Assembly: GCA_964510585.1 (NCBI GenBank)
Contig: CAZECW010000191.1
Coordinates: forward strand, 1 to 26,662
Direction: 5' to 3'
DNA length: 26,662 bases
DNA from: an uncultured archaeon
GTDB lineage: Archaea; Asgardarchaeota; Jordiarchaeia; Jordiarchaeales; Jordiarchaeaceae
The notes beneath the pieces are model-generated. The model saw only the letters and a program-made list of their open reading frames with translations, was not told the origin of the DNA and did no database searches. Both the position numbers and the translations under genes were made by a program. Shown here one piece after another: positions 7,519 through 24,162 of this stretch. Each line of letters opens with the position of its first letter. Position 1 is the first letter of the stretch.

Positions 7519-7947
7519 CCCACCAATTCAAACAGCATGATTAGTTTTCTGTAATAAAAAATTATGTTTTCACATAAATGTTATTATCAGAATTTTTAAG
7601 CATATCTTTAAACACGTAGCAATACATACACATACGTACCTAAATATGCATGCTAGGTAATGAATTTTAAATGCTCTAAGGGAAAACAAGGTAGATACTC
7701 TCAATTACGCAAAAATGTCTGAATGGCCGAAATTTTGTTCTGGTGTTTGATGGACAATTTTTTAAGCTCGTTTGTATAAGCGATGCATTTTGGTGTATCC
7801 ATAGGAGAGTTTAGTCTGATTCTCTTTTTTTCAGAAACTGTGAATGCAGTTTTCCCTCTATGGTGCCTGTTTTAAAGTGTCGAAATTTGGGGTATATAAA
7901 AAATATTAATTATGTGCAAATGTGATTATTAACTCATAGGACCCTTA

Positions 7948-8238
7948 GTGGTGATGATTGTGAGTGTTTGGGTGGATGAGACGAAACGAATCCTTGAGAT
8001 AATTAAGGAGCAGAAGCCCAGAGACCGGTTGGAGTATGTCGGCTCCCTCGCCGACTTGAACCTTGCCCTTGCCAGATCCGTGAATGGTTGGGATGAGTGG
8101 CTTAGAAACCCCCAAATTATGACCATACTTACAGAGGAAGAGCTGCGCCAGGTCTATGAAAGATTCAAACCAATAGTCATCAGCTTCCTTGAACTGGACA
8201 TATGGATTACAGAGAAAAAGATTTCTGAACAAAAATAA
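7948..8238 (+). CDS. DUF2153 family archaeal protein (true start may be ATG 7954 or GTG 7960)
   Basis: WV...KRIL...DRLE...ALARSVNGWDEWLRNP.IM...EEL...FLELD pattern typical of DUF2153. Confidence 0.8.
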   Translation: MVMIVSVWVDETKRILEIIKEQKPRDRLEYVGSLADLNLALARSVNGWDEWLRNPQIMTILTEEELRQVYERFKPIVISFLELDIWITEKKISEQK

Positions 8239-8701
8239 TACACGGAACCACGCACGCTCAATAAACCAGAGTAAAACAGTCTATGCATGTTTTCATAGGT
8301 ATTTCCACGTCTTGAGTGCAAAATGCTCTTCAAATCCTTCTCTTTCTCTTTTTCGGGAGTAACTCACACAAAACTGGATTTTTCGGTTCTAGATCCCTCC
8401 AACAATCTATACCATTCTCCAAGGGTCGTTTAGAAATAATTTGACACCATATTTAGGCTCCAATAAGGCCAGTCACTTCTCAACTTCTCTAATCCTAGCT
8501 TAATAGTCACCCAAAGATGGCAGTCATTTTGGAGAAATTTTCTAAAAGGAATTTTCAAAAATAGTCTTCTAAAAAGGATTAAAATGGTTTATTTCTTTAC
8601 GAGGGGCTGAACATTTAAAACAATTGGTTCGTTGAGCTCATTATTTTGGGGCATTAATTTGGGTTGTTTTGAGCCAAAAAAGGGATAGGAAAGGTTTTCG
8701 T

Positions 8702-12049: not shown

Positions 12050-12580
12050 GTGGAAGAAAAAGAGAGAGACAGGAAACGCGTAGCCATTCTAGTTGCTGGC
12101 GGAATATTGTTCGTTGTCATTTTGCCAATCCTTTGCATCTTCGTTTCGCAGCTGGTAGATTCTTGGTTCGGCTTCCCGAAGCTAGTTTCCCAACAATTCA
12201 ACTTCGCTGTTGCAGCAATATTTTTCGCGGTTGGATTTTTTTGGGCCATATGGTCAAATGTTGACCTATTCCAGAAGGGTGAGGGAACACCAGTGCCAAC
12301 CAGGATGACGCAGACGAGGAAGCTTGTGGTGGATGGAGCCTACAAATATACCCGAAACCCCATGATGTTTGGCTACTTACTTATCTTAATAGGCTTGGGC
12401 TTTCTCTTCAACTCTCTCTTCCTTACACTGGGTGTCACTTCAATTTTCACCGTAGTGCTCGTGGCATTTATTAAACTCTGGGAAGAGAAGAACTTGGAGG
12501 AGCGTTTCGGCGAATCCTACATAGAGTACAAAAAGAAAGTCTCCTTTATAATCCCCATGCCGCCCAAGAAACAAGAATAA
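12050..12580 (+). CDS. Isoprenylcysteine carboxyl methyltransferase (ICMT/Ste14)/PEMT-family membrane methyltransferase
   Basis: Several TM helices, LVVDGAYKYTRNPMMFG and EEKNLEERFGESYIEYKKKV...IP motifs. Confidence 0.9.
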   Translation: MEEKERDRKRVAILVAGGILFVVILPILCIFVSQLVDSWFGFPKLVSQQFNFAVAAIFFAVGFFWAIWSNVDLFQKGEGTPVPTRMTQTRKLVVDGAYKYTRNPMMFGYLLILIGLGFLFNSLFLTLGVTSIFTVVLVAFIKLWEEKNLEERFGESYIEYKKKVSFIIPMPPKKQE

Positions 12581-12666
12581 CCGCCCCTCAATATTTTTCA
12601 CATTTTGTTCTTGAGAAATTTATCCACCTGTCCTTGTGAAAAAATTGGATCTTGTGTTGATGGAAT

Positions 12667-13335
12667 ATGGTTGATTTGTGGGTTGTGCTTCAATGGGTTT
12701 TGGTTGCAATTCTACTTTACTTGGTGCACTTTTTATTTATCGCTAAAGTTGTTAGGCACTACTTCCATTTTCCAATTCCCGGTTTTTTAACCCAGCTTAT
12801 CGATAACCCCATTCGAAGGAGAATTCAAAGGCCTGAGGTGCTGGCTGAGCGGATGAAGCTTAAGCCGGGAATGATTGTTGTGGAGGTAGGTCCCGGCAAA
12901 GGAAACTACACTAAGGCCGTAGCTGAGAAAATTCTGCCCGGAGGAAAAGTGTATGCAATTGATATTCAGGAATCCGTTATTGAACGCTTAAAGAAGAGAA
13001 TCGAAAAATGGGGAATCACAAATATTATCCCAAAAATTGATGACGCATATAACCTATCATTCGCCAACCAAAGTGTAGACAGAATCCTAGCCATTTGCAC
13101 ACTAGCAGAAATTCCAGAACCAGTTAAAGTACTGCGCGAATTCCACCGAGTCCTGAAGCCAGATGGCTTAGTGTGCCTTAGTGAAATGTTCCTAGATCCA
13201 GATTACCCAAGGAGAATCACAGAGAAGCGATGGGCTTCCGAAGCAGGTTTCGAACTTAGGGAGGAATTCGGAAACTTTTTCATATACCAACTGAACCTCG
13301 GAAAAAAATCAAAAATAAACCAAATAAATGTCTAG
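12667..13335 (+). CDS. Class I SAM-dependent methyltransferase with N-terminal membrane anchor
   Basis: Motif I VVEVGPGKG, acidic AIDIQ, SVDRIL, LREFHRVLKPDG. Hydrophobic N-terminal 25 aa. Confidence 0.9.
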   Translation: MVDLWVVLQWVLVAILLYLVHFLFIAKVVRHYFHFPIPGFLTQLIDNPIRRRIQRPEVLAERMKLKPGMIVVEVGPGKGNYTKAVAEKILPGGKVYAIDIQESVIERLKKRIEKWGITNIIPKIDDAYNLSFANQSVDRILAICTLAEIPEPVKVLREFHRVLKPDGLVCLSEMFLDPDYPRRITEKRWASEAGFELREEFGNFFIYQLNLGKKSKINQINV

Positions 13336-16416: not shown

Positions 16417-16935
16417 ATGGGTTTATTTGACTATAGTTCTTATCTTGTTGAAGAAAAGTTGTTGACTCCCCGATACACTCTCATCATAAAGAATGAGAAG
16501 GGTGAAGAGCTGGGAAAAGCGGTCAGTAAATTTCTCTCTTTTAGGGGAAAAATTGAATTCATCGACAGCCAGGGACAAAAAGTGGGCTTTATTGAGGGAA
16601 AACTGTCTGCTAGGCCCACCTTCAAAATAGTGGATCGGCACCAGAAGCACATTGCCACAGTTAAGGAGAAGATGTTAACTATTCGCAGCGAGTGGTGGGT
16701 GGAGGATCCGGAGGGTGAAAAAATTCTATTTGTAAAGGGCGATGTTTGGGGTTTAGAGTATAAGATTGAGGACAAGTCTGGTCTAGTGGTTGCAGAGGTT
16801 TCAAAAAAGTTTTGGTCTATACGCGACCATTTCGGAGTTAAAATAAAATACGACTTCAACCCCTTCCTTGTACTATCCATTGTGGTGGCGTTGGGCTTCC
16901 AAAACCAAAGAGCTTCTGCCGCGGCTGCTTCCTAA
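16417..16935 (+). CDS. LURP-one/phospholipid scramblase-like (Tubby C-terminal fold) protein, paralog A
   Basis: Repeated hairpins (IKNEKGEELG, IDSQGQKVG, VEDPEGEKIL, IEDKSGLVVAEVSKK), SIRDHFGVKI and C-terminal hydrophobic helix PFLVLSIVVAL. Confidence 0.88.
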   Translation: MGLFDYSSYLVEEKLLTPRYTLIIKNEKGEELGKAVSKFLSFRGKIEFIDSQGQKVGFIEGKLSARPTFKIVDRHQKHIATVKEKMLTIRSEWWVEDPEGEKILFVKGDVWGLEYKIEDKSGLVVAEVSKKFWSIRDHFGVKIKYDFNPFLVLSIVVALGFQNQRASAAAAS

Positions 16936-17114
16936 AAAATTTTGGAAAAATTTTGGTCTGCTTACAATGCGTTTAGAGTTATTAAAATTTTTGTGGTGTT
17001 TTTATAGTAATATCTAAAGCATATATAGGAATAAAAGTTTCAAGCCTTTCCTATTTTAATGGACAAATCGGCACTAGTGAGGGTACTCTATCCGCGTTTT
17101 AGGGCTGATTCGGC

Positions 17115-17513
17115 ATGGATAAAAAAATTGACGAGTTAATGGGAAAAATTAAATCCTCAATTTCTGGGAAAAGTTATCTGGCTTTGATGGATGAGGAAGG
17201 GAACATTCTATATAACAATTTTTACCCTAACCTAAATGGTTACATTAAAAACTTTGCTCCGGCCATTAAAACAATGGATGTGGGGGATTACCAAGTTAAA
17301 AACTATGCCAAAAGCTGTTTAATAATCTACAAGGTCAGCGACAGGTTAGCCCTGGTTGCAGAAAGCTACGTTAAGGAAGGTTTACTCATTTTTACAATAA
17401 AAAACATAGCGGAAAAATTCAAAGACCAATTCTTCGAACTAGACATTCTACAAATGTTCTCACACATGGCAGAGGAAGAAGGGGAAGCCAAGATAACAGA
17501 GCAACTATTATGA
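17115..17513 (+). CDS. Small Roadblock/longin/profilin-like alpha-beta protein
   Basis: Helix, then YLALMDEEGNIL hairpin, helix, strands LIIYKVSDRLALVAES, and KEGLLIFTIKNIAEKF helix. This resembles MglB/Roadblock topology; the fold is inferred only. Confidence 0.6.
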   Translation: MDKKIDELMGKIKSSISGKSYLALMDEEGNILYNNFYPNLNGYIKNFAPAIKTMDVGDYQVKNYAKSCLIIYKVSDRLALVAESYVKEGLLIFTIKNIAEKFKDQFFELDILQMFSHMAEEEGEAKITEQLL

Positions 17514-17670
17514 GTATCTCTTAGCAGATTTTTCATTCTCTAGCTTTGTCCCTTCCAAAGAATCAGGGTGTCTATACAGATAAGGATGTTAATTGGTTTT
17601 CTTAATTTTTCAAAGGTAGAATAAAAAATTTAAGTCGTATATTGATTATTTTATATGTGAGGTTTTAGAT

Positions 17671-18177
17671 TTGGGTTTGTTTGACTATAGAACTTATCTT
17701 ATTGATGAGAAGTTGTTGTCTGTACGTGACACCCTGATTATTAAGGATGAGAAAAACCAGGAACTGGGTAGAGCTGTGAAAAAGCTTTTGGCGCTGAGAG
17801 AAGAAATAGAGTTCATCGATAGTCAGGGGAAGAAGGTTGGAGGAGTTAGGAGGAAAATGGTTGCCGCCAGGCCCGCCTTTGAAGTCTATAATCAGAACAA
17901 GAAATTGGTGGCAAACATTAAAAAGAAAATTGTGGCCATAGGTGATGACTGGTGGGTAGAGGAACCCAAGGGCGAAAAGGTACTAAACGTTGATGGAAAC
18001 ATTCTAGATTTGGAGTACAAAATAAAAGATAAGCTTGGTCAAGAAGTCGCCGTAGTGTTAAGGAAACTCTTTTCCATACGCGACCACTACGGTGTCAAAA
18101 TAGTTCGAGACGTTGACCCCCTACTGATCCTGGCCACAGTTGTATCTATAAATATGGAAAAAGAGAGAAAGGATTAA
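17671..18177 (+). CDS. LURP-one/phospholipid scramblase-like (Tubby C-terminal fold) protein, paralog B
   Basis: About 52% identical (88/168 by manual alignment) to 16417..16935, with the same MGLFDY start and SIRDH motif. TTG start with GAGG RBS. Confidence 0.88.
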   Translation: MGLFDYRTYLIDEKLLSVRDTLIIKDEKNQELGRAVKKLLALREEIEFIDSQGKKVGGVRRKMVAARPAFEVYNQNKKLVANIKKKIVAIGDDWWVEEPKGEKVLNVDGNILDLEYKIKDKLGQEVAVVLRKLFSIRDHYGVKIVRDVDPLLILATVVSINMEKERKD

Positions 18178-18377
18178 CTTCATGAAGAGGACTCTAACAG
18201 TTAAAAATTGAACGCAGAAAAAGGTCTCACTCTTTTCTTTTCGCTAAACACGAGGCGACGCACATTCCCTTTTCTTGACTCTATAGCACTCTCTCTCACA
18301 CAACGACCATATCAATCATTAATGGGATGTAAGACTACCATAAAGCGAACAATAATCCAAATCGTAGATTGGCTTCT

Positions 18378-18472
18378 CTAAAAGGCTCAAAGAGTATTTA
18401 AAGTTAACAAACTCTGTAAAACTCTTTTTCCATAGTTAACTAGGGGATTCTTCAATTTTTTGAGCCTTCTAG
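18378..18472. repeat. 14-bp imperfect inverted repeat bounding a 95-bp segment
   Basis: CTAAAAGGCTCAAA (18378-18391) vs TTTGAGCCTTCTAG (18459-18472), 13/14 complementary. Confidence 0.45.
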
Positions 18473-18569
18473 TGGAAATCTCCATTTATTTATTTCCCGT
18501 TTTGCCCCATTAAAAAGGCTTATTAGATTTTCCTAGCTTGAAGAATCAGTAAGAATGGGTGGAATTTAA

Positions 18570-20603
18570 ATGAGCTTAAAGCGAAGCTTACTCATTTTCA
18601 CCCTGCTAATGCTTCCCTTAACAGGATTAACGGTAAATGGGGTACTTTATTCGAGTAGTTCTTACCAATCCTGTTTGAGTTTTTCAGCCACTGGATATAC
18701 TTGTGGAGCAGGTCTTGTAGCTAAGGATGTAAATGTGATAGTCTTGAATTCTGATACAGACCATGATTTGCTTCAGTATCGCCCCCAAGATTGGAAGGTT
18801 TCTTCGGTAAACATAACTCTCTCAAATATAACTGCGCCAACCCACACCATGGAAATCGAAACCTACGGTCATCAGGCACTCCCCCTGTATCTGAAGGAGC
18901 TCAATATTCTTATTGTGGGCGTAATGTCCTTTAGTTTAACACCCGGGCAGAGAGTCTATTTTAATAAGCTAAGCGCGCTTCTCATCAAAGTTCCTTTTAA
19001 CGAGACTGCATTCGCAGATGTAGCAATTCTTAATGCCACAATTCACCCTACTTTCGGCCTAATTCCCAACGAAACACTTTTCAGCGCACAAAATGTGTCA
19101 GTTGAAGGCGGCCCCCTAGAGTTTAAAAACCTCACACTACTGCCTCCAGACCAATATATATTTCTAGATCCCAACATCAACCAAACCGCTCAAAATACTT
19201 ACTTTGTGGGGATAACCCAGAATATAAGCAGCCCACCAACTTCAACTTTATATTGGTTCTATGATGTAGACTCACATGTTCCCAACGGGAACGCTGGAAC
19301 CGCCATATTTGCGATGTACCATATTCCCAATGATGCGCCCTTTTTTGTTGGTGATAGGGATCCCACCGATAATGAGATGTTTGATTTTTGCCTGAAGCTT
19401 TACTTGAATGCTACTCTACCTTCTCAGCAATATCCGTTGCCAACTGATATTGGTTTGATGATAAATGGAACGCCTGTTATAAACATGGATCAGGGGATGG
19501 GATGGTGGTACACCACTGAGAATCTTTCTGGTGAATCGTTATTTTTTGATGTTTCTTCGACTTGGAATACTACGGTGAGCTTTACTGCAACCATTCTCAT
19601 AACTTATCAGTCAGCGCTTCTAAGCATTTTCTTCACAATGTTCACCTTTAGCATTTATTATCAGAATCAGGCAAGATATCATGAATATTTGTTTTTGCTT
19701 GCACTAGGTTCTGTTTTGGCTGGTGGTTTTGGTGGCTACAAGGTAAATAGGAGAAGAATGATTCCGAGAAACGCTTTGCGAAGTTTTGAACACATAATTG
19801 TGGATCACAAAGGTACAGGTGTTCTTCTCTGGGTTTTTGACTTCGTATCGATGGAACATGATGTGGCTTTGGTTTCGGGGTTCGTATCAGCCATTAAATC
19901 TTTCTTGGAAGAAATGAAGGTCGGGGGACTAAAAAGGCTGGGAACAGAGTTTGGAACCTTCATCAGAGAAGAGAGCGAACTTCTGACCGTAACCTGCATC
20001 ACCAGTGACATTGGAATAGACGAAGAACTCTGGATTAGAGGCAAACTACACAAGTTTCTCACCAGCATAGAGCAGCAGTATCATATGCAGATTGAAAACT
20101 GGAAGGGCGAAGTAGGCCAATTCAACGAAGCTTTCCCCCTAATTCTGGGTTCAGTAATAGACTTGGATAGAGTGAGGAAACTTCAAGAGCATAAGGTTGA
20201 GGACTTAAGACGAAAAAGAGAAAAACTGCAGAGAGAAGTGAACAGGTACGGAGCCATGCTTGAAGAATTAAAATCTAAGCACGACTCTGGTGAACTAAAC
20301 TACGATGAGTACAACAAAAAGCGGCTAAAAATCGAGCACAAGTACGACAAGGTTCAAAAGGACTACATATACGCAAGCCTATTCCTCTCCAAGGTTCCCC
20401 TGGAAACAGAGGTTTCACCCAAAGAGATGGAAAAGCTGAAAGAAATACAGGAACGCTTCTTTGAAATAAAGATGCAGATTCAAGAGCTGCGAAGAAAAGA
20501 GAGCGAAGGAACATTTAACGAGAGTGACAGGAAACAAAAGGAAAAGCTTCAAAAAGAACTAATGAAGCTGATAGAGAAACTAGACAAATACAAAAAGGAA
20601 TAA
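18570..20603 (+). CDS. Membrane protein: signal peptide, sequon-rich ectodomain, hydrophobic segment(s), longin-like domain, coiled-coil tail
   Basis: Hydrophobic N-terminus. 13 N-X-S/T sequons before aa ~345 by my count. Hydrophobic segments at aa ~349-364 and ~373-390, followed by RRR. HIIVDHKGTGVLLW...LVSGFVSAIKSFLEE longin-like motif at aa ~404-505. E/K coiled coil. Confidence 0.85.
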   Translation: MSLKRSLLIFTLLMLPLTGLTVNGVLYSSSSYQSCLSFSATGYTCGAGLVAKDVNVIVLNSDTDHDLLQYRPQDWKVSSVNITLSNITAPTHTMEIETYGHQALPLYLKELNILIVGVMSFSLTPGQRVYFNKLSALLIKVPFNETAFADVAILNATIHPTFGLIPNETLFSAQNVSVEGGPLEFKNLTLLPPDQYIFLDPNINQTAQNTYFVGITQNISSPPTSTLYWFYDVDSHVPNGNAGTAIFAMYHIPNDAPFFVGDRDPTDNEMFDFCLKLYLNATLPSQQYPLPTDIGLMINGTPVINMDQGMGWWYTTENLSGESLFFDVSSTWNTTVSFTATILITYQSALLSIFFTMFTFSIYYQNQARYHEYLFLLALGSVLAGGFGGYKVNRRRMIPRNALRSFEHIIVDHKGTGVLLWVFDFVSMEHDVALVSGFVSAIKSFLEEMKVGGLKRLGTEFGTFIREESELLTVTCITSDIGIDEELWIRGKLHKFLTSIEQQYHMQIENWKGEVGQFNEAFPLILGSVIDLDRVRKLQEHKVEDLRRKREKLQREVNRYGAMLEELKSKHDSGELNYDEYNKKRLKIEHKYDKVQKDYIYASLFLSKVPLETEVSPKEMEKLKEIQERFFEIKMQIQELRRKESEGTFNESDRKQKEKLQKELMKLIEKLDKYKKE

Positions 20604-23013: not shown

Positions 23014-24162
23014 TTAGATATTGTTTTTGCTCAGAATTTTTATGAAATAGTCCAAGCCGTTGCCCATTTTTTTGAGCTCATTATTTCTATATGGTGATTC
23101 GTCCAACAGGTTTAATACGTCTTTTTCAAGGTTTTCAGCGATTTTGCCGTAGCCATATTTCTGGACCATAATAGCGTTTTTCCTCTTTTCCATGTGTCCC
23201 TTGGCGCAGAATAGTAGTAGGGGCACCCCATACATTATGGCTTCCGAAATTGTTCCGAATCCGCTCCGCGCAATAACCAGGTTTGAAGCGTTAATGTAGT
23301 TTTGAATGTCTGGGAGGAATCCGTTGAATCTCAGGTTTTCCTGTTGGAGTTCTCTGAAAATTGGAGTTTGAACGACAACATAGAAGTGGATGCTTGGGTG
23401 TTCCAGTGCAATCTTTTTGTAAATTTGAAAATCATAATTCTTCAAGGAGCAATTATTGTTGTAGGGTCTTCCCATCACGAGAACCAGTAGATCATTTTTT
23501 CCTAGTCCCAGTTGACTCCTTATTTCCGACTTGGTTTTAGTTAGGTCCCTGACTATGGGTGGAAAAACTTTTTCGCAGTCCACAACTTCTGGCCTAATAT
23601 CCATTACAAAATTCTCAGAAAGTCCAAAAAAGGAGCGTACACTCTCACCCCACATTATAGGTCTCTCAATTAGATACGAGTAAAAATTCATCCTAAAATC
23701 ACGCCACCCATATTTAAAAGGTAAATAGTGGGTAATGTTAATAGTTCTTATTCCGGGAAAACATGAGAGGTGTGGGTTGTAATCATTAACTAATATACGA
23801 TACTTAAAGCTCAAAAGTAGTGTTCTTAAAAAATCTATGGGGAAAAATAGGCTGTCAAACATTAGTTTCAATGCTGTGGGGAAAGTGTGGAGGTCTCCGT
23901 CTCTTCTATATACGTAGCTTATTCCGTGAAGCCCAGCATTATACTTTAAATTGGGTTGGGAGATAAAATTTATCCTTTTTTCATCGCTGAAGACTAGGCA
24001 TTCTGTATTCCTCATTTTCATTAGCCTTGATGCAATGGCCTGGGCTCTCTGGGCGTGGCCGTAGCCCTCATTTGTGGGAGCCAAGATAACTCGTAAAGAG
24101 GGACGCTCCAACCTGTAATCTGCCCTTTCTAACTGGGATATTGCGGATTTAGAAACTATCAC
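23014..24162 (-). CDS. GT-B fold glycosyltransferase (GT28/MurG-like, MJ1255-like)
   Basis: N-terminal EGYGHAQRA motif and C-terminal LVIARSGFGTISEAIMYGVPLL...EKRKNA nucleotide-sugar-binding motif. Confidence 0.85.
   Translation of the reverse strand: MIVSKSAISQLERADYRLERPSLRVILAPTNEGYGHAQRAQAIASRLMKMRNTECLVFSDEKRINFISQPNLKYNAGLHGISYVYRRDGDLHTFPTALKLMFDSLFFPIDFLRTLLLSFKYRILVNDYNPHLSCFPGIRTINITHYLPFKYGWRDFRMNFYSYLIERPIMWGESVRSFFGLSENFVMDIRPEVVDCEKVFPPIVRDLTKTKSEIRSQLGLGKNDLLVLVMGRPYNNNCSLKNYDFQIYKKIALEHPSIHFYVVVQTPIFRELQQENLRFNGFLPDIQNYINASNLVIARSGFGTISEAIMYGVPLLLFCAKGHMEKRKNAIMVQKYGYGKIAENLEKDVLNLLDESPYRNNELKKMGNGLDYFIKILSKNNI

Follow-up and report, generated by a model that had tools for sequence, protein, structure and literature searches.

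The four co-oriented genes at positions 16417-20603 of a 26,662-nucleotide stretch of DNA (contig C191, hereafter the window) from a hot-spring Asgard archaeon appear to be two things and not one module: a lineage-specific set of two LURP-one-related genes (LOR1 and LOR2) with a Roadblock gene between them, and an independent receptor-like gene beside it. We hold this reading tentatively, with a probability of roughly 0.42. A preliminary description of the same DNA had taken the four genes for a single membrane-remodelling module of scramblase-like, Roadblock-like, scramblase-like and longin-domain proteins. The genes themselves, described there as consecutive and co-oriented, were all found in place, and the features of the locus are as follows:

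12050-13335, plus strand: PEMT/ICMT-like membrane methyltransferase and SAM methyltransferase (context genes, Pfam matches).
16417-16935, plus strand: LOR1, 172 aa.
17115-17513, plus strand: Roadblock/LC7-fold gene, 132 aa.
17671-18177, plus strand: LOR2, 168 aa, TTG start.
18207-18399, minus strand: broken relic of a glycosyltransferase (GT) gene, its first ~67 codons, with one frameshift and one in-frame stop.
18400-18569, no strand: ancestral divergent intergenic region (putative promoter), continuing the same DNA match to L074 as the relic.
18570-20603, plus strand: receptor-like gene, 677 aa.
23014-24162, minus strand: intact GT28/GT1-type glycosyltransferase gene (PF04101 and PF13528 matches).

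The gaps between the four genes measure, in order, 179, 157 and 392 nt, and an AT-rich region lies upstream of each of them; separate promoters for the four genes are probable, as had been suspected earlier from gaps of 157-392 nt. A search for Ras-family matches found no small GTPase gene on contig C191, which bears out the earlier remark that the window holds none. That the four genes share an orientation is nothing unusual by itself.

Gene order was compared with that in seven related Freyarchaeia genomes or contigs (G002-G005, L070, L072 and L074). The order and orientation of LOR1, the Roadblock gene and LOR2 were retained in all seven, with insertions inside the trio in four of them: a TPR gene in G005 and L072, a 136-aa gene at the same place in L070, and a 234-aa ORF in G003. 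The genes flanking the trio (Hgd, Fer4/FAD, LplA, SufBD/C and PrpD) come and go among these relatives, and the methyltransferase pair upstream of LOR1 is also present in G005, L070, L072 and L074. The receptor-like gene adjoins the trio in this genome only. Elsewhere it lies further downstream, with opposite-strand Suf and GT genes between it and the trio, and forms a divergent pair with the GT gene (GT on the minus, receptor on the plus strand) in G002, G004, G005, L070, L072 and L074, a pairing kept also where the Suf genes are absent. In G003, which kept the trio and the GT gene, the receptor ortholog is reduced to a 46-codon remnant beside the latter. The neighbourhood check proposed in the preliminary description came out divided: the LOR1-Roadblock-LOR2 order holds in 7/7 relatives, receptor adjacency in none of them. 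The conserved order is limited to the trio, within one archaeal family-level group.

The history of the receptor-like gene is recorded in the 392-nt spacer, which consists of the 5' relic of a GT gene and the old GT/receptor intergenic region. A tblastn search with the GT orthologs of L074, L029 and L025 matched the relic in two frames, with a stop (E 4e-14 to 1e-7), and a 359-nt DNA match, 71% identical, joins the spacer to positions 12683-13036 of L074, that is, to the GT 5' end and the GT/receptor intergenic region. An AT-rich stretch and a GGTGG motif precede the receptor ATG, and the region 18400-18569 may function as a promoter. As the spacer holds both the GT relic and the old intergenic region, the receptor gene moved here together with its own putative control region; it was relocated recently beside LOR2 by rearrangement.

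We read the 677-aa gene as standing apart from the trio; it belongs to a multi-copy family that encodes receptor-like glycoproteins of type I. Its product has 13 matches within its own genome, where at least five paralogs, this gene included, are present in full-length or cut-off form; the paralogs have no recurrent neighbours, and no LOR, Roadblock, GTPase or GT gene adjoins them. The protein is divided as follows:

18570-18650, plus strand: predicted signal peptide, aa 1-27, a basic N-terminus and then a hydrophobic stretch.
18651-19685, plus strand: extracellular domain, aa 28-372, acidic, with 13 sequons.
19686-19745, plus strand: single Gly-rich TM helix, aa 373-392, with K/R-rich residues after it.
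19767-20159, plus strand: cytosolic longin-like domain, aa ~400-530, from AlphaFold and Foldseek.
20160-20603, plus strand: basic helical coiled-coil tail, aa 531-677, two weakly similar halves with SHOCT-like motifs.

The predicted signal peptide exceeds a Kyte-Doolittle value of 1.6 at aa 6-27 and is conserved in the family alignment, as are the TM segment and the KRRxIP motif downstream of it. Another hydrophobic stretch, aa 339-364, was rejected as a membrane span because of charged residues in the paralogs. Pfam, PDB-profile and Atlas searches gave no match for the ectodomain. Its richness in sequons, noted earlier, was confirmed: 13 N-x-S/T sequons compare with 4.3 +/- 1.8 in shuffles, and in the family alignment N155 and N299 are invariant and N81 nearly so. 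For the cytosolic part, an AlphaFold model of aa 396-540 (pLDDT 86, order beta-beta-alpha-beta-beta-beta-alpha-alpha) gave Foldseek matches to zeta-COP, sigma-adaptin, Fuzzy, TRAPP and Mon1 (E 3.5e-5 to 1e-3), in agreement with the longin domain originally placed at aa ~404-505. Roadblock structures also score against this model, and we describe the modelled domain as longin-like within the Roadblock/longin superfamily. None of the Pfam longin models reached its cut-off for it; a paralog on contig C65 scored 24.1 bits with Fuz_longin_1 (cut-off 26.1), other longin-domain relatives gave weak Longin, Sybindin or Clat_adaptor_s matches, and a relative on C113 passed Robl_LC7 instead (23.3 bits). 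For the tail, SHOCT stayed below threshold (15-16 bits against a cut-off of 27, in three paralogs), and searches otherwise returned SMC-like coiled-coil noise matches only. No SNARE Pfam match was found in the protein.

A longin-like profile search of the genome, which encodes at least 24 small GTPases, returned 31 ORFs, four of them fused to Ras-like GTPases and three adjoining one; longin-GTPase fusions have likewise been reported in other Asgard archaea (PMC10933270). The association with GTPases thus holds for members of the longin family in this genome, not for the protein encoded at 18570.

Both LOR proteins passed the 24.5-bit cut-off of PF04525 (LURP-one-related, DUF567), LOR1 with 46.6 bits (E 4e-12) and LOR2 with 54.7 bits (E 1.3e-14), the matches spanning model positions 27-186 of 187, and a profile of LOR2 orthologs matched PDB 1zxu (At5g01750) at E about 1e-11 over residues 11-166. 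These matches uphold the assignment of the genes at 16417 and 17671 to the Tubby/LOR fold; the Tubby Pfam model itself matched neither protein. By PF04525 they are the only LOR genes in the genome. Identity between the two is 50-55%, with N-termini that run in parallel, and does not exceed 34% with other LORs from Asgard archaea; LOR1 orthologs with 62-88% identity occur in four congeners. Both proteins are basic (pI 9.1 for LOR1, 9.2 for LOR2) and contain zero Cys. Each ends in a short hydrophobic stretch; no 19-residue window reaches Kyte-Doolittle 1.6, and no TM-grade segment was found. Judged from their sequences, LOR1 and LOR2 are predicted to be soluble Tubby-like barrel proteins from one duplicated gene. 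The lipid scrambling that had been proposed for them found no support, as LOR1 (13.3 bits) and LOR2 (17.2 bits) both stay under the 25.4-bit cut-off of Scramblase (PF03803), have no Cys and have no TM-grade hydrophobic segment. By these scores they resemble scramblases but stand outside PF03803 membership.

The 132-aa protein encoded between them is acidic (pI 5.1) and has no Pfam match at E <= 1, PF03259 included; its profile gave only a match at E 0.13, to 8yqk, in the PDB. Its AlphaFold model (pLDDT 86.7, order alpha-beta-beta-alpha-beta-beta-beta-alpha) found its best Foldseek matches in MglB (6hjm), an Asgard Roadblock (8yql) and LAMTOR2 (probability 1.0, E 5e-6 to 1e-4, TM 0.6-0.75), which supports the Roadblock-like call made at first for 17115. 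According to this model, the product is a divergent stand-alone Roadblock/LC7-fold protein. An invariant G-D-Y-Q motif lies on strand beta3 of its subfamily, a small one with 16 clusters among 1.8 billion representatives. Most members form the N-terminus of winged-helix proteins, and among 41 relatives surveyed the stand-alone form occurs only in this genus.

In the reading that we prefer, the trio would be a Freyarchaeia-specific set in which the LOR gene was duplicated and a stand-alone divergent Roadblock copy lies between the LOR copies. The interactions and functions that we infer are the following. LOR1, the Roadblock protein and LOR2 may work as one set. The Roadblock protein, which is acidic and probably dimeric, as other Roadblock proteins are, could offer a platform for docking or regulation, and the LOR barrels could be peripheral lipid- or ligand-binding subunits. 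A small GTPase partner, if any, would be encoded elsewhere among those of the genome. The longin platform of the receptor, for its part, would most likely recruit or regulate a small GTPase at the membrane.

It is also quite possible that no functional coupling exists and that the four genes, together with the PEMT, methyltransferase and GT genes, are an inherited block with the Roadblock gene between the LORs by chance. Retention of the trio can be explained by descent alone, because its synteny is confined to one family-level group in which the unrelated PEMT and methyltransferase genes are equally syntenic. The 157-179 nt gaps and the foreign genes inserted in some relatives argue against an operon, and the separate AT-rich upstream regions also fit uncoupled genes. 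Within +/-6 kb of LOR genes in other Asgard genomes, a GTPase, Roadblock or longin neighbour was present at 14/40 loci, with ~10 expected from gene density; such neighbours are not clearly enriched, and an A1-type Roadblock gene adjoining a LOR was found only in this genus. Against chance, however, stands the invariant order of the trio despite gene gain and loss on both flanks, and this duplication of the LOR gene and a Roadblock protein that stands alone are both found in this lineage only. Elsewhere among Asgard archaea, moreover, two lineages have tandem LOR pairs beside a Roadblock gene (L088) or beside a GTPase and a longin gene (L094, L104).

We consider it unlikely that the GT and the receptor are the functional pair, with a GT28/Alg13-like enzyme that helps to build the ectodomain glycan and a trio that is unrelated. 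The divergent arrangement conserved in six relatives, even without Suf genes, the abundant and partly invariant sequons and the PF04101 match of the GT would fit such a role; however, the pair is split in this genome with both genes still intact, and the paralogous receptors have no GT neighbour.

The four-gene membrane-remodelling module, in which the ectodomain senses a cue and, through longin/Roadblock adaptors, Tubby-like proteins scramble or bind lipids, is unlikely. All four fold calls behind it are correct, the LORs and the Roadblock protein differ in pI (basic and acidic, respectively), and a longin-family gene lies within 5.5 kb of three of the five members of this Roadblock subfamily in the genome (rough chance ~0.006). 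Since every relative with a receptor gene has it no more than ~5 kb downstream of the trio, a loose functional link between the two is conceivable. Yet the GT relic shows their adjacency to be secondary and unique to this genome, opposite-strand genes separate them elsewhere, G003 has the trio without a receptor ortholog, and the neighbours of the receptor paralogs are unrelated. To the low Scramblase scores and the missing Cys and TM helix it may be added that the C-terminal helix has been modelled as buried inside the barrel (PMC2639001), and that doubt has been cast even on whether proteins of the PLSCR family scramble lipids physiologically (PMC3590573).

We also regard as improbable an undescribed Freyarchaeia membrane-proximal signalling set in which a Roadblock dimer bridges two LOR barrels to the receptor longin platform; if true, such a set would let an external cue act on lipid binding or on the recruitment of GTPases, and the look-alike LOR loci in other Asgard lineages would point to an older LOR-GTPase-platform partnership.

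Among known systems, MglB, LAMTOR2 and Asgard Roadblock proteins (6hjm, 8yql, 9jue, 7f8m) have the same alpha-beta-beta-alpha-beta-beta-beta(+alpha) fold as the modelled Roadblock protein, at ~130 aa. Unlike MglA/MglB, the gene at 17115 has no adjoining GTPase gene; canonical Roadblock-GTPase pairs are found elsewhere in the genome, on contigs C60, C196, C54 and C117. It differs from the canonical Roadblock family in having no PF03259 match and in belonging to the small GDYQ subfamily, in which the other members have a winged-helix domain at the C-terminus.

LOR1 and LOR2 belong to the same size class as the LURP-one-related family and end in a short hydrophobic stretch, the putative counterpart of the C-terminal helix that occupies the barrel interior in 1zxu; they differ in being archaeal and in forming a tandem pair that flanks a Roadblock gene. 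Neither LOR1 nor LOR2 has extra domains, such as the N-terminal zinc ribbons present in some of the other Asgard LORs. We know of no LURP-one-related protein with a defined biochemical function. Phospholipid scramblases (PLSCR, PF03803) and Tubby C-terminal domains are remotely related to them: all share one superfamily, whose barrel has 12 strands and encloses a central helix (PMC2639001). In contrast to PLSCR, LOR1 and LOR2 have neither a palmitoylation Cys motif nor a proline-rich N-terminus.

The receptor was rejected as a longin SNARE (VAMP7/Sec22/Ykt6), since its order is signal peptide, ectodomain, TM, longin and coiled coil, the reverse of VAMP7 and Sec22, in which the longin domain comes first and the TM last. 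Its modelled longin domain has the same secondary-structure order as the longin platforms zeta-COP, sigma-adaptin, Fuzzy/Mon1 and TRAPP Bet5/Trs23, its top structural matches, but differs from them in its setting: it lies between the TM and the coiled coil, on the cytosolic side of a type-I membrane glycoprotein.

Four ORFs follow each other in the window, and their coordinates in the preliminary description proved exact:

16417-16935, +, LOR1, the first LURP-one-related (LOR) protein
17115-17513, +, the Roadblock-fold protein
17671-18177, +, LOR2, the second LOR protein (TTG start)
18570-20603, +, the receptor-like protein (677 aa)

The intergenic gaps in this row are 179, 157, and 392 nt. 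The genome containing the contig is 3.78 Mb in size and 96% complete, and the source names of close homologs assign it to the Asgard class Freyarchaeia/Jordarchaeia. DNA of the window was matched in nine sequencing runs, all of hot-spring metagenome DNA and none of RNA. At least 24 Ras-superfamily matches and 17 Robl_LC7 matches were found in the genome, several canonical GTPase-Roadblock pairs included; none of them falls on this contig, and the window indeed lacks a GTPase gene, as had been remarked. Scanned against NCBIfam and PADLOC, the four proteins gave coiled-coil noise only (for example SMC, LmuB) and no sign of a defence system, and an Rfam scan of the window and of the corresponding congener locus L027 revealed no RNA family. 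An antisense ORF of 146 aa (16440-16880, -) lies entirely within LOR1 and is most likely a shadow ORF rather than a gene.

Gene order was compared with four congener genomes (G002-G005) and three further related contigs (L070, L072, L074); G005, a complete genome, belongs to Ca. Freyarchaeum deiterrae (PMC11291895). The order LOR1-Roadblock-LOR2 on a single strand was kept in all seven relatives, among which identity of the Roadblock protein falls to about 51% and Hgd, Fer4/FAD, LplA, SufBD/SufC, and PrpD were gained or lost in the flanks. The trio is not tight, as genes are inserted in some relatives:

L026 6274-6702 (G005), +, TPR gene between LOR1 and the Roadblock gene, Pfam-confirmed
L072 9559-9771, +, TPR gene between LOR1 and the Roadblock gene, TPR on record
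L070 9351-9761, +, unnamed 136-aa gene between LOR1 and the Roadblock gene

Unlike in these three, no gene separates LOR1 from the Roadblock gene in the window, and in G003 the Roadblock gene and LOR2 are separated by an oppositely oriented 234-aa ORF. Upstream of the trio, the window encodes a membrane methyltransferase of PEMT/ICMT-like type together with a SAM methyltransferase (12050-13335, +). The pair is present upstream in every relative with a long enough contig, and in G005 it directly adjoins LOR1. In eukaryotes, prenylated GTPases are substrates of ICMT-type methyltransferases.

The receptor gene directly follows LOR2 in the window only. It lies after a divergent glycosyltransferase (GT) gene in G002, G004, G005, L070, L072, and L074, with sufBD-sufC between LOR2 and the GT gene in some relatives and not in others, and G003 keeps only its last ~46 codons. 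In the receptor's place, L027 (G003:C84) carries at 7750-8521 about 600 nt of non-coding DNA and then the ~46-codon remnant; the non-coding stretch contains a GUGCG-like string and has no Rfam match. By sequence comparison, the 392-nt gap in front of the window's receptor gene consists of a putative promoter region and a GT pseudogene fragment:

18207-18399, -, GT28-type pseudogene fragment, first ~67 codons, broken by a single frameshift and a single stop (tblastn, three GT orthologs as queries, E 4e-14)

This relic is closer to the GT of L074 than to the intact GT of the window (23014-24162), and window positions 18217-18565 share 71% identity over 359 nt with the 5' end of the L074 GT gene and the adjacent GT/receptor intergenic region. 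Relic and intergenic match together show that the receptor gene moved to this place and brought its own, putative divergent promoter region along.

Both LOR proteins matched the Pfam LOR family (formerly DUF567), LOR1 with 46.6 and LOR2 with 54.7 bits (cut-off 24.5), and a profile of LOR2 orthologs matched At5g01750 (1zxu), a solved member of the family, with E 1e-11. LOR genes occurred in 80 of 201 Asgard genomes sampled, and also in Bacillus, Corynebacterium, and Methanosarcina; many LORs elsewhere in Asgard archaea carry N-terminal zinc ribbons. LOR1 and LOR2 are 50-55% identical to each other, are the only LORs of the genome, with no third gene, and share at most 34% identity with LORs from other Asgard lineages; the duplication is therefore the lineage's own. 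The label "scramblase-like" previously given to them is weak, as their scores with the Scramblase model, 13.3 and 17.2 bits, stay below its cut-off of 25.4. Both proteins are basic (pI about 9.1-9.2) and, because they contain no cysteine, lack a palmitoylation motif; no hydrophobic window of transmembrane grade was found in either. In the paper linking DUF567, PLSCR, and Tubby, the C-terminal helix is argued to be buried in the barrel and not membrane-spanning (PMC2639001), and another paper doubts that PLSCRs scramble lipids physiologically (PMC3590573).

The Roadblock-fold protein had no match in Pfam, NCBIfam, or PADLOC. Its AlphaFold model (21-sequence alignment, pLDDT 86.7) has the order alpha-beta-beta-alpha-beta-beta-beta-alpha, and the best Foldseek PDB matches were Myxococcus MglB, a Lokiarchaeal Roadblock domain, LAMTOR2, and further Asgard Roadblock structures (E about 5e-6, probability 1.0, TM 0.6-0.75). 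Model and matches confirm the designation "Roadblock-like" at the level of the predicted fold; the alignment profile gave nothing significant against PDB sequences, and fold comparison alone made the identification. A G-D-Y-Q motif in strand beta3 is invariant across the subfamily. Only 16 related clusters came up when 1.8 billion representatives were searched exhaustively with HMMER, and in most of these clusters the domain forms the N-terminus of proteins of 180-430 aa, several ending in a winged-helix domain; a 252-aa paralog of this long kind is encoded on contig C8 of the same genome. C-terminal HTH_47-like winged-helix domains are fused to both Roadblock domains of this type and longin-like domains in the genome (C8 4975-5733, -; C98 13396-14010, +; C76 44088-44948, -), which suggests that some members are transcription-linked sensors. 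On C113 and C65 the Roadblock subfamily is co-located with longin genes, a weak lead only, because several unrelated genes intervene.

The receptor-like protein is composed of the following parts:

N-terminal, signal peptide
310-340 aa, acidic ectodomain with 13 sequons
aa 373-392, single, Gly-rich, conserved TM helix, followed by KRRxIP
C-terminal part, cytosolic domain, then basic helical coiled-coil tail

The ectodomain is sequon-rich as described before: it has 13 sequons, where shuffled sequences average 4.3 ± 1.8. Of these sites, N155 and N299 never vary across the family, and N81 hardly does. Its profile gave nothing significant against PDB sequences, and in a protein atlas the best scores (0.89) belonged to unnamed clusters. 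A two-TM hairpin topology was rejected: in paralogs, the hydrophobic segment immediately ahead of the TM helix (aa 339-364) varies and bears charges, and the protein is thus read as single-pass type I. The model of aa 396-540 (26 sequences, pLDDT 86) has the longin order beta-beta-alpha-beta-beta-beta-alpha-alpha, and its top fold matches were zeta-COP, sigma-adaptins, Fuzzy, TRAPP Bet5/Trs23, and Mon1, with Roadblock structures ranking slightly below longins. Order and top matches support the predicted longin domain. All Pfam longin models stayed below cut-off for this domain and its alignment profile gave nothing significant against PDB sequences, so that fold comparison alone identified it; paralogs showed near-threshold matches to Fuz_longin_1, Longin, Sybindin, and Clat_adaptor_s, and a relative on C113 narrowly passes Robl_LC7.

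The profile of the longin-like domain matched 31 ORFs in the genome. Three longin-like ORFs adjoin a Ras-like GTPase gene (C117, C188, C193), and four are fused to a Ras-like small GTPase:

C118 13147-14145, -, longin-like/GTPase fusion
C27 843-1874, +, longin-like/GTPase fusion
C27 6335-7249, +, longin-like/GTPase fusion
C81 258-1169, +, longin-like/GTPase fusion

Because members of the same genome are fused to or adjoin Ras-like GTPases, which is the best evidence, the domain may be read as a GTPase platform; the fusions are in line with Asgard longin/Roadblock-GTPase fusions already reported (PMC10933270). The tail (window 20160-20600, +) and the paralog tails carry two G-x-[IL]-[ST/N]-x-x-[ED]-[YF]-like motifs, and SHOCT (PF09851) matches in tails of the family were sub-threshold only, recurring in three paralogs. 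The paralog family has 13 matches in the genome and similar numbers in congeners. Four paralogs examined have an integrase, a radical-SAM enzyme, Fe-S proteins, PIG-L, a PFL-like enzyme, and DUF2961 as neighbours, and no LOR, Roadblock, GTPase, or GT gene lies beside them. On C79, a 1294-aa signal-peptide protein with no Pfam match (L115 7424-11305, -) is encoded between two paralogs, adjoined by a phage-type integrase gene.

In other Asgard genomes, 14 of 40 LOR loci had a GTPase, Roadblock, or longin match within ±6 kb. Gene densities in five of these genomes set the chance level at about 20-30% of windows, or about 10 loci; as the loci are moreover not independent, an enrichment was judged unconvincing. 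Two look-alikes stand out, a row longin-GTPase-LOR-LOR within 1.5-3.5 kb in genus g19 (L094, L104), and a row LOR-LOR-Roadblock in another Asgard genome (G065, L088), with the Roadblock gene directly beside the tandem LORs. Through them a broader LOR/GTPase-platform link stays alive as a lead, not a finding.

With a rough probability of about 0.4, we favour the reading that LOR1, the Roadblock protein, and LOR2 are a lineage-specific, probably cooperating set that would function jointly, beside a receptor-like longin protein, one of a family, that would be regulated on its own and whose gene arrived there recently. Nearly as likely is that functional coupling is absent and gene order reflects shared descent only; the inserted genes and the lack of linkage between such Roadblock domains and LOR genes outside the genus speak for this, the order kept in all seven relatives against it. 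That all four genes form one full membrane-remodelling or scrambling module, as the preliminary description proposed, is improbable and not supported, given that the receptor gene adjoins LOR2 in the window only, and the claim should not be carried forward on present evidence.

Roadblock and longin platforms with small GTPases are central to ideas on the Asgard origin of eukaryotic membrane trafficking. Their genes are rarely neighbours in Asgard genomes (PMC10933270), so partners are hard to assign. A fixed LOR-Roadblock-LOR set, if true, would give an orphan Roadblock protein a concrete candidate partner that can be tested, and would open a first way into the function of prokaryotic LOR/DUF567 proteins. 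In the receptor-like family a variable glycosylated ectodomain is combined with a constant TM-longin-coiled-coil part, which would place a longin platform directly beneath the cell surface. In the papers searched, neither this architecture nor the fixed trio is described.
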